42,872 bases of DNA from Bdellovibrionota bacterium (GCA_050952645.1 JBMNLI010000006.1:1-42872), one strand, 5' to 3'. Positions 22,532-25,822 are shown, counted from the first letter of the stretch. The notes: generated from the sequence alone by a model not told the origin. Program-made: numbers and translations.

Positions 22532-23380
22532 AAGACTGATTTTTGTTAAGGATTAGTAGAGTTTTTTTAAGCTAAATTTTAATCTTGTAAGTTTTAGGTC
22601 TGTGATTATATAATATTTTTACTTAAGTTTTTTTACCACGATATTTTTTTTTTGAGTGCATTGTCTTTATTAGAAAATTTTAATTTAAACCTAAATTTTT
22701 TAAGAGTGTGTAAGTAAAATTAAAAACTAGATTTTTATTATGTTAAAATTCCTTTTAACCTTAAACAACCGATTAAAAAATTTCTTTAAAAATTTCTTTC
22801 AAAATAAAAATTTGATGAAAAATAAATATAAAAAGTCCCATTCGAGTCGTGGTAGCGTTTTAACAGAAACAGGCTATAGTTTGTTTTTATTATTTTGTAC
22901 TTACATGGGTAGTGACGAATGTTTTCGTATTTGTTTTTCATATGGTAGCTTTAAGAGAGTATTGCCTAGACGGTTTAAGAAAGGAAGATGTTCCTAATTG
23001 TGAGTCTGTAAGGGGGAAAACTCGAAGTGAAATAGATGAAGTATGCGAAGTGCCTGAGGTGCAAGCTCTATCTAAAGATTGTCCTACTATATGTAAATTT
23101 TGGATTACGGCTTATAATTTAGCATTATCGAAAAAGGTAGCGACCCCTAAGCAACTAGGCTTTAAATATTTTGAGTTAAGAGGGGAGCCGTGTATAGCTA
23201 AGTATGGTATTTTAATTGGTTCTTCACGTTTTAGGTGGGTTAGAAAAATTGTTTTTGGGGGTTAGCTTAAAAGAAAATTGGCTTTTATAGAAAACTATCT
23301 ATAGTTTAAAGAAAAATTACAACTATATTTAAAGTAATTTATTTTATGCAAATTTCTTTAAAATCAATTTTCTTTTGGGC

Positions 23381-25274
23381 GTGTGCCGGGCACGACATAG
23401 TTCTAGCGGGTGAAAGTCCCGTCACGGGTAGTTGTCACCAAGTGTAGTGATGCCACAAGCTCGAAGCAGTAATGTTAGAGTGAAGGAAGTGGCGGATCAA
23501 AACCAAGGAGCCTACGAACAGAAACCAGATACAAGGCTAAATGGTGGGTGAGGTTGCGCTACAAACCGAAGCCCTAAAGACAAACGTAAAACCAAACGAG
23601 TAAATCTGGAGGTTGTCTGGTGAAAGAACTATGCCTTACCCCGGGAGGTCCAGATAGCGTGCTATGCACGTGCGATATAAAGCTTATATCTGGAAGTCAG
23701 TTGATACCATAGTACTTGAGACACCACTCAAGGAAGGGTTGAACGTTAATATATTGTGAATCACTGTAAGCAAGGCTAGAAGAGTCCGAAATTGAAGATA
23801 TGCCTAACAAACAGGAACGTAACCTGTGGGGGCAGAAGATAGAGGGGGTGTTTTCTAGTAGCTTTACAAACAGAGGGAGGAGCAACAGGTGGAATTGATT
23901 GAACTAATTATATCAGACAAAAATATAGATGAGGCTATAAAGGCTGTTAAGCGAAATAAAGGTGCATCTGGTGTAGATGATATGCCAGTAGATGAGCTTG
24001 AAGACTATTTTGCCGTTCACAGAGAAGAGATAAAATCTCAGATACGTGAAGGGAATTATAAGCCGAGTCCAGTTAAGAGAGTGTATATACCTAAAGCTAA
24101 TGGTAAGATGAGACCTTTAGGAATACCTACAGTAGTAGATAGGGTAATTCAACAAGCGGTAGCGCAAATACTAGCACGCGGATACGAAAAGTATTTTAGT
24201 AATAGTAGCTATGGCTTTAGACCTAGAAGGAATTGCCATCTAGCAGTATATAGAACTCTTGAGTACTTGAAAAGAGGCTATGATTGGGTTATAGACCTAG
24301 ACATAGAGAAATATTTTGATACTGTTAATCACGACAAATTAATTTCGATAATCAGGGAACGCATCAAAGATGCGAAGACACTACGATTGATAAGACAGTT
24401 CTTAAGAGCTGGTATAATGGAAGATGGATTGTTTACTGTAAGTGAGAAAGGAGTTCCGCAAGGAGGTCCATTATCCCCAGTATTATCTAACATATACCTT
24501 GATAAGCTCGACAAGGAACTGGAAGCAAGAGGACTTAAGTTTGTTAGATATGCCGATGACTGTAATATATTTGTTAGAAGTGAAAAGGCTGCTAATAGAG
24601 TAATGAAGTCCGTTGCGAGTTGGTTGGAGCGTAAGCTACGACTTAAAATTAATTCAAGTAAGAGTAAAATCTCTAGGCCGACGGAAAGCACTTTCTTAGG
24701 CTTTACCTACTGGAAGAGTGGGTATAAAACTTGGAAATGTAAACCTGCTGAAGATCGCAAACGAAAACTCTATGATAAAACTAGAGAAATTCTTTGTAGA
24801 CGGAAGGCAATGGCACGAACGTTAGGTTCGACATTTCAACAGCTAAGCTGGTTAATTAAAGGTTGGATAAACTATTATAAGATAGGAACTCTTAAGACTT
24901 TTATAGATAAATATGGTCAATGGCTTAGACACAAAGTGAGGGTTATAATACTTAAACAGTGGAAATTGCCGAGACGAATCTATCTAAATCTTAAGAAATT
25001 GAACCGAATGCTTGGTTGCAATTTTAGAAATGAAGAAATCTATAAGGTTGCTAACAGCAGACTCGGCTGGTATAGACGCAGTTCGTGGTACGTAGTGAAT
25101 TATGCATTAAGCCCTAAAATATTGGGGCGTAAAACAAAGGAACGAATTGGTTTAATCGACCCTTTGACGTATTACCTGAGTATTACTTGATATTATATTA
25201 ATGGAGCGCCGTATACGAGACCCGTACGTACGGTGCGACGGGAGGGAGAGGGTATAGCCCTCGCTCTACCCTAT
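23381..25274 (+). mobile_element. Group II intron, bacterial class C (IIC), 1894 nt
   Basis: 5' end GTGTG (GUGYG); GGGTGAAAGTCCCG in domain I; short ribozyme; domain V GCGCCGTATACGAGACCCGTACGTACGGTGC with CGC triad (25206-25236); domain VI with bulged A at 25268 and AT end. Confidence 0.92.
23889..25190 (+). CDS. ltrA: Group II intron reverse transcriptase/maturase (no endonuclease domain)
   Basis: NKGASGVD, RPLGIPTVVDRVIQQA, SYGFRP, DLDIEKYFD, GVPQGGPLSP, RYADD, FLGF, GWINYY thumb domain; GTG start with GGAGG SD. Confidence 0.97.
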   Translation: MELIELIISDKNIDEAIKAVKRNKGASGVDDMPVDELEDYFAVHREEIKSQIREGNYKPSPVKRVYIPKANGKMRPLGIPTVVDRVIQQAVAQILARGYEKYFSNSSYGFRPRRNCHLAVYRTLEYLKRGYDWVIDLDIEKYFDTVNHDKLISIIRERIKDAKTLRLIRQFLRAGIMEDGLFTVSEKGVPQGGPLSPVLSNIYLDKLDKELEARGLKFVRYADDCNIFVRSEKAANRVMKSVASWLERKLRLKINSSKSKISRPTESTFLGFTYWKSGYKTWKCKPAEDRKRKLYDKTREILCRRKAMARTLGSTFQQLSWLIKGWINYYKIGTLKTFIDKYGQWLRHKVRVIILKQWKLPRRIYLNLKKLNRMLGCNFRNEEIYKVANSRLGWYRRSSWYVVNYALSPKILGRKTKERIGLIDPLTYYLSIT

Positions 25275-25822
25275 TTCGTGGGGCGAGTGATACTAATTTT
25301 AAGGTCTTTAACCCACTTAAAACGTGAAGAGCCTTTTAATTCCTGGTATAAAATTAGATAATGATAGTATAAAGACTACTAAACTCCCTCGAGAGTTTGT
25401 GGAAGAAGGAAGAATATGTAGATTTTGCTCCCATTGATAAAGAAAGTGAGACGATAAAACTTAGGACAATGAAGGGAGGGAAGATTTTTATTAAGTCTGG
25501 TATAATATTAGATATATTTAAGTTGTTAGATGATGAGCCTCTCATAGCAGATTCGTTTCATGTAGGTTTTTTTAGGACTGCGCAAATTTTCGATACATCT
25601 AGTTCACCTAAGGGGAGTTCGTCTAGTAGTAGCAGTTTGTCTAGTTCTTCACCAAGTAGTAGCTCATCTAGCGAGAGTTCCTCGTCTAGTAGTAGTAGCA
25701 GTTCATCTTTAACAGAAAGCGTTTCATCAACTTCCTTATTTTCATCGCAAAGTTTTGAAAGTAATGAAAGCACCAATACATCAGATTATAGCACTAGTAG
25801 TTTTAGTTGATAAAATAAAAAA

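Follow-up and report, generated by a model that had tools for sequence, protein, structure and literature searches.

A group IIC intron that probably uses the hairpin of an ISL3-derived MITE family as its main landing pad

Introduction
The window analyzed here is a stretch of 42,872 nt from a Bdellovibrionota bacterium. It includes a group II intron that lies within a MITE. The locus raises the question of whether the MITE carries the intron from place to place or whether the intron reached the MITE on its own. A sequence-only reading of the window had proposed a co-mobilized unit, and had added that the intron could home into empty MITE copies. The element, its relatives in the same genome and the intron's insertion sites were compared and the two routes were weighed.

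Structure of the element and its empty site
The 2116-bp unit is flanked by two copies of the 8-bp repeat TTTTAATT and has TIRs that match at 23 of 25 positions (Table 1). The intron is surrounded by 163 + 59 = 222 bp of non-coding MITE DNA. Its boundaries were set by the 10 copies in the genome, which have identical start and end bases. The exact 8-bp TSD, the 25-bp TIRs, the 222 bp of non-coding DNA and the 1894-nt intron with an intact YADD RT had all been named from the sequence alone, and every coordinate was confirmed. A promoter and terminator scan of 23000-23900 gave one promoter-like site (1.7 expected) and no terminators.

Table 1. Features of the intron-bearing MITE, in window positions.
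Feature	Position	Strand	Comment
Left 8-bp target site duplication	23210..23217		Single copy at the empty site in 6/8 runs
Left TIR of MITE	23218..23242	+	First 24 nt match ISL3 element G000:C10:339480-341339 (left end) at every position
Left 163 bp of the 222-bp MITE (intron 5' exon)	23218..23380	+	Sequence comparison with other copies
Predicted internal DNA hairpin	23264..23380		Fold -21.6 kcal/mol, z -5.3 vs 100 shuffles
Mirror insertion site AAGC/T	23264..23265	-	Empty in the window copy; occupied in 3 other intron copies
Group IIC intron, 1894 nt	23381..25274	+	10 copies in the genome
EBS1 (GCUA), domain I loop of stem 23552-23567	23558..23561	+	Covariation with the last 4 exon bases, 36 relative sites
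RT/maturase, 433 aa, YADD at 24549-24560	23889..25190	+	No endonuclease domain found
Domains V and VI, presumed CGC catalytic triad	25204..25274	+	Rfam RF00029 42.1 bits; triad read from sequence
Right 59 bp of MITE (3' exon)	25275..25333	+	First base T = IBS3; right TIR 25309-25333
Right 8-bp target site duplication	25334..25341		Identical to 23210..23217

Eight sequencing runs from six studies were examined for the empty site; the source sample may be among them. In X1, X2, X3, X4, X8 and X9, but not in X5 and X7, a joint was found that omits 2124 nt and retains a single 8-mer (8 letters fit both sides). This joint lay within one contig in X4 and X8, with 255 letters on the shorter side. The whole unit is a real insertion, because the empty joint with its single 8-mer was seen in six of the eight runs. 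A MITE-only allele at the window locus was shown in none of the eight. One 94-nt contig of X3 spans the left MITE junction with 26 letters on the MITE side (threshold 31), which is a hint only. Intron coverage is partial in X3 and almost nil in X9, and missing coverage does not count as evidence.

The element splits a hypothetical gene with a Ser-rich tail (22816-25810). The reading frame of this gene is continuous through the empty junction, yet other breaks are present. Run X8 differs from the window by single-base indels at 22870 and 25389, and other strains may have an unbroken gene.

Class and origin of the intron
The 433-aa ORF matched only RVT_1 and GIIM in Pfam and scored 410 bits against TIGR04416 (cut-off 300). 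In comparison with solved maturases the RT scored 362 and 337 bits with IIC-type enzymes (337 with the GsI-IIC RT) and 165 with LtrA. Rfam matched RF02001 (D1-D4) at 106.7 bits in addition to the D5/D6 model listed in Table 1. The intron ends, fixed from the 10 copies, show the GUGYG start and the AY end. The CGC triad in domain V was read from the sequence and agrees with the rule for the class. A class C RT without an endonuclease domain, group II ribozyme domains, a short EBS1-IBS1 pairing and a predicted upstream stem-loop together place the intron, by its sequence, in group IIC (class C). The sequence-only reading had named the lack of an endonuclease as a general trait of IIC introns, and it holds here: no such domain was found beside the RVT_1 and GIIM matches and the class C RT match.

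An IIC-attC intron was considered and rejected. These introns insert at TTGT/T in the attC bottom strand, according to the available text of PMC7923331, and the sites here are RGC/T or TAGC/A (the slash marks the point of insertion).

The closest RTs for which an organism was named (57-77% identity) were from Erysipelotrichaceae and Clostridia (loci L021-L044 and L105-L137). This placement and the lack of an intron match in 39 of 40 host relatives suggest that the intron was gained horizontally. When the unit was sought in these 40 related genomes (at most the best seven candidates per genome), the only matches were one of 51 bp to a flank (G001, 91% complete) and one of 107 bp to the intron (G016). 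The first 30 nt of the intron gave 0 matches to metagenome contigs, a set from which close records may be missing. From the 10 near-identical copies at distinct sites in the genome we infer that the intron splices and retrohomes.

The MITE family and its ISL3 element
TIR-like matches numbered 131 in the genome, compared to 0, 1 and 1 in three shuffles. Thirty-four elements had paired TIRs and 21 of them were flanked by duplications, 13 at 8/8 and eight at 7/8. The family gave 137 non-overlapping hits, 44 of them long-form copies, and occupies 0.97% of the genome. A 15-mer of the TIR had 0-2 matches in each of five relatives, like the reversed control, and none of the 40 relatives searched yielded the family.

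One ISL3 element of 1860 bp with an 8-bp TSD is present in the genome (C10:339480-341339). Its left end is identical to the MITE TIR at 24 of 24 positions and its right end at 23 of 25. The transposase scored 173 bits with PF01610 and 228.7 bits with NF033550 (NCBIfam cut-off 180). The MITE is, as judged from the sequences, ISL3-derived: it shares TIRs with the ISL3 element, has 8-bp duplications, is multi-copy and is non-coding. An ISL3-like MITE had been proposed from the window alone, and the genome supplied both the multi-copy family and a cognate ISL3 with matching ends and an 8-bp TSD. The 423-aa frame of the ISL3 element (L020) has no in-frame start codon in the assembly, owing to a genuine break or to a sequencing error.

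The MITE occurs in three lengths, 104 bp without a hairpin, 159 bp with a short hairpin and 222 bp with a long hairpin. The 104-bp form has its junction at a short T/G direct repeat; examples of the length variants are C12:245989-246092 and C9:31355-31513. Another type of MITE, about 270 bp long, has eight paired copies and shares ~220 bp with the ISL3 right end (e.g. C12:9344-9618 and C9:65927-66204). The intron was absent from all eight. MITE-derived tandem arrays were found at C9:42963-43772 (unit 196 bp), C10:about 293800-294230 (130 bp), C7:about 145000-147620 (about 280 bp) and C17:about 233760-236230 (about 290 bp).

Insertion sites and the predicted hairpin
Nine of the 10 intron copies lie at the foot of the internal MITE hairpin, on either strand, and one lies at a non-MITE hairpin. 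The site is GGGC/T in five copies, as in the window, and the mirror AAGC/T on the other strand in three; AGGC/T and TAGC/A occur once each. The AGGC/T copy occupies one repeat of a tandem array with 98-bp units and a short hairpin. The TAGC/A copy, on contig C15, lies at a unique hairpin outside the MITE family; a MITE remnant is about 100 bp away. For all 10 exon joins, folding predicted a stem that ends where the intron is inserted (z from -4.1 to -7.5).

In the window the hairpin arms are at about 23264-23285 and 23360-23380 and enclose an AT-rich branched loop of about 75 nt. The foot comprises an inner stem of about 13 bp, a 4-nt T spacer, IBS1 (23377-23380) and then T. The solved IIC target has a 12-bp stem, a 4-nt spacer, a 4-nt IBS1 and T in the accessible part of PMC10190682. 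Read against that target, both MITE strands would offer the same layout of stem, spacer and IBS1, provided that the outer base pairs fray.

The EBS1 tetramer GCUA pairs at three or four of four positions with all four site types and fits RGC/T at both hairpin feet. T stands at +1, the IBS3 side of EBS3-IBS3, in nine of the 10 sites. Among relative introns the EBS1 loop changes in step with the final four bases of the exon: a mean of 3.53 of four positions were paired, compared to 1.87 after shuffling (0/10,000 shuffles reached this). The loops showed 20 different EBS1 tetramers, and the result is inflated by kinship, as the introns are not independent. The set held 36 distinct sites from 49 loci, 13 being dropped where no 5' end or EBS was found or the flank was short. 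Since GCUA fits both feet and EBS1 covaries in relatives, targeting here is most likely ordinary IIC hairpin targeting with an ISL3-derived MITE supplying the sites.

The relatives are 57-77% identical, belong to Bacillota where named, and sit after compact terminator-like hairpins. GCUA is not among their 20 tetramers. TIR-like repeats were sought around 26 of them; 23 had none and three had short ones (11-14 nt), and no MITE host was seen. Copies of one intron in Allobaculum stercoricanis (L032-L035, L041 and L044) have different EBS1 tetramers (AAUA, AUAA and GUAA), and each tetramer fits its own site at three to four positions.

The intron is enriched in MITE sites. A census reduced 78,726 RGC sites to 1836 by an exact 8-mer prefilter and then to 400 predicted hairpin sites with RGC at -8 kcal/mol, of which 120 belong to the MITE family. 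Occupancy was 9/120 for MITE sites compared to 1/280 for all others (P = 1e-4) and 1/102 for intergenic ones (P = 0.02). At -12 kcal/mol the difference was weaker (8/87 for MITE sites vs 0/40 for intergenic sites, P = 0.056). Site supply, fit and neutrality may all contribute to the enrichment. Occupied copies make up eight of the 44 long-form MITEs. The intron was found in 0/11 short (104-bp) copies and 0/36 hairpin-less sites, controls too few to reach significance. Eight of 10 copies are on the G-rich strand, a replication-strand bias that is not significant (P = 0.11), and one exception lies 10 kb past a skew switch.

The AGGC/T copy (L009, G000:C10:108630-112386) is nested at three levels. 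An 1858-bp IS1634-family element with a 5-bp duplication lies inside the intron ORF, and the intron lies in one unit of the 98-bp MITE-derived array. The IS1634-family element scored 250 bits with NF033559 on partial sequence and has nine near-identical copies in the genome. Run X2 has a junction with this element at 24986, as in L009.

Landing pad or vehicle
Compared with the window copy, the introns carry 0-3 substitutions over about 1894 nt. Among the eight hosts of the long form, all 28 pairwise comparisons gave 6-31 substitutions in 173-221 bp of MITE. The window element and the copy at C10:229923, both with perfect TSDs, differ at 7/221 positions in the MITE and at 0/1893 in the intron (P = 1.4e-7 if both parts had one age). 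Joint movement predicts a shared age, and MITE and intron are not of one age because the introns are near-identical while their host MITEs have diverged. The nearest neighbor of each of the eight hosts is an empty copy, for five of them a truncated near-consensus one. Two tandem sister MITEs on contig C17 differ at 2/221 positions and only one holds the intron.

The age contrast would be false if assembly or polishing had homogenized the introns. Five of the 10 copies do carry one to four single-base indels, mostly in base runs, which resemble long-read errors, so the polishing state varies between copies. This explanation is nevertheless hardly credible, as the copies retain private substitutions and the evidence from orientation, tandem sisters and the non-MITE site is independent of intron identity. 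The intron is also present in independent runs, with 0-2 differences in X1, X4, X5 and X7 and 14 in X8 (in about 1.9 kb). Flank contigs in the runs differ at 5-9 positions in about 260-300 letters (2-3%). The youth of the intron is therefore not only an assembly effect, since intron contigs with 0-2 differences occur in runs whose flanks vary more.

As judged from these sequence comparisons, a recently acquired IIC intron most likely retrohomed copy by copy to the predicted hairpin foot in an older ISL3-derived MITE family (probability roughly 0.8). The MITE would then be mainly a landing pad and not a vehicle. The suggestion that the intron could home into empty MITE copies is thus borne out by the nine copies at the MITE hairpin foot, the divergence contrast and the sister copies without the intron. 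The locus is no one-off insertion either: the sequence-only reading had called for a count, which gave 10 intron copies, many empty MITEs (the long-form copies number 44) and a cognate ISL3. Its co-mobilized unit fared less evenly. The proposed test, a search for composites with different TSDs, turned up four, but co-mobilization is unsupported as the main route, given the far older MITE parts, the two mirror sites and the non-MITE hairpin, and the sisters without the intron.

One observation runs against a simple reading. A silent variant at 23906 divides the copies into seven with A and three with G, and the G copies are exactly the three at the mirror site (Fisher P = 0.008, post hoc). Independent homing does not predict this match of allele and orientation. 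We read it as two waves of homing, which leaves the match itself unexplained. The variant lies in RT codon 6 (23904-23906), for which three synonymous Leu codons occur among the 10 copies.

Two founders, one per orientation, would yield the match of 3/3 vs 0/7 if MITE and intron formed one non-autonomous composite moved in trans by ISL3, with later gene conversion with empty MITEs scrambling the MITE parts. Reticulation among the MITEs is possible because their tree is poorly resolved. Both TIRs are retained in four of the 10 intron copies, with four different TSDs (8/8, 8/8, 7/8 and 7/8), the units, at 2.1 kb, are not much larger than the 1860-bp IS, and the cognate ISL3 scores above the NCBIfam cut-off. 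This composite is still rather improbable as the source of the copies. The three G hosts differ from each other at 8/173, 28/217 and 25/175 positions (5-14%), and among them one lacks the left end and one has decayed ends. Homing is needed in any case for the A-allele copies at the non-MITE hairpin and inside the tandem array. In X4 an intron contig with the G allele leads into a GGGC-type 3' exon, and the single ISL3 ORF (423 aa) has no in-frame start in the assembly. No MITE haplotype was found with the intron at several loci, the closest two hosts differing at 6/173 and none of the 28 pairs being identical. A composite may nevertheless have moved once in the past, for instance into the window locus.

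The match would also arise, with no need of intact TIRs, from a few homing events followed by spread between MITEs through homologous recombination or exon-carrying cDNA, which would keep orientation and allele together. On the long side, MITE copies share 47-163 bp at about 95% homology. Such spread is very unlikely. There is no sign of co-conversion of nearby markers: on the 3' side, hosts of like orientation show differences no more than 2-16 alignment columns from the site, and two mirror-site hosts differ within 4 and 18 columns. At the junction of the C15 copy, MITE homology is absent.

Proposed mechanism
Under copy-by-copy homing, the ISL3 transposase would have acted in trans to multiply the MITE, with 8-bp duplications as the result. 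In single-stranded DNA at the replication fork the MITE inverted repeat would fold and present the ~13-bp stem, the spacer of four T, a 4-nt IBS1 with RGC at its end, and T. EBS1 GCUA would pair with RGC and the intron would then reverse-splice, with the nascent strand priming reverse transcription. The near symmetry of the repeat would give every long MITE one site per strand. Insertions in MITEs would persist, being nearly neutral.

A two-engine element, in which both processes act, is an unlikely extension of this scheme. ISL3 transposition would make new twin-site hairpins and at times move the whole 2.1-kb unit, and the intron would colonize empty copies. The allele-orientation match would then record composite moves, or spread between MITEs guided by homology.

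Comparison with known systems
B.h.I1 and GsI-IIC are class C introns that insert after stem-loops. Class C introns are described as inserting after terminators or attC with short pairings and limited specificity, in the available text of PMC4424553, PMC3898094 and PMC7923331. The present intron resembles them, and the E.r. intron as far as the accessible part of PMC10190682 describes it, in the lack of an endonuclease, the 4-nt EBS1-IBS1 pairing, the T at +1 and the order of stem, short spacer and IBS1. It is unlike the terminator- and attC-associated introns in that nine of 10 copies are in one repeat family. In contrast to the sites of terminator-targeting class C introns, the MITE hairpin combines a long stem with a branched, AT-rich loop of ~75 nt, shows nothing terminator-like in the scan and can be used on both strands.

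RmInt1 homes into ISRm2011-2. E.c.I1, I3, I4, I9 and c-Ha.de.I1 subgroup 2 are further group II introns that home into IS elements and benefit from many non-essential sites (PMC3522654, available text). Here too a multi-copy, non-essential mobile element is the source of sites and is unsaturated (8/44 long MITEs). These introns differ from the present one, a class C intron that reads a hairpin in a non-coding MITE. IS targeting and class C terminator targeting are treated as separate strategies in the accessible part of PMC3522654. Two intron strategies that reviews keep apart, DNA-hairpin reading and hiding in another mobile element, are joined here.

The closest likeness to the MITE is an ISL3-mobilized MITE of Microcystis aeruginosa, which in the available text of PMC11448079 is short and non-coding, has GGCTCTTC-type ends, 8-nt direct repeats and a stem-loop, and has a cognate ISL3. 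The window MITE shares these ends, repeats, stem-loop and cognate ISL3; the Microcystis MITE, as described in that text, is without an intron.

An IIC intron targeting a MITE was not found in the literature searched, where coverage of key IIC papers was incomplete and Quiroga and Centron 2009 (title only) may list repeat targets. When a MITE multiplies, a newly arrived class C intron can find dozens of sites at which insertion is nearly neutral. IIC target rules could also be tested on this family: the symmetric hairpin with one site per strand allows fork-strand preference to be followed at one locus, and the length variants (long-loop, short-loop and hairpin-less) with the same IBS1 form a natural comparison set. 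No new biochemistry is implied, and the arrangement has been seen in one species.

In IStrons and the Thiomargarita 'MITEtron' a group I intron harbors an IS or a MITE (PMC4853749, in the part available). There too an intron is combined with IS- or MITE-type DNA, but here the nesting is reversed and separate movement is favored. The parts of the present element are known and their combination is new, a class C intron with the twin-site hairpin of an ISL3-derived MITE as its main target.
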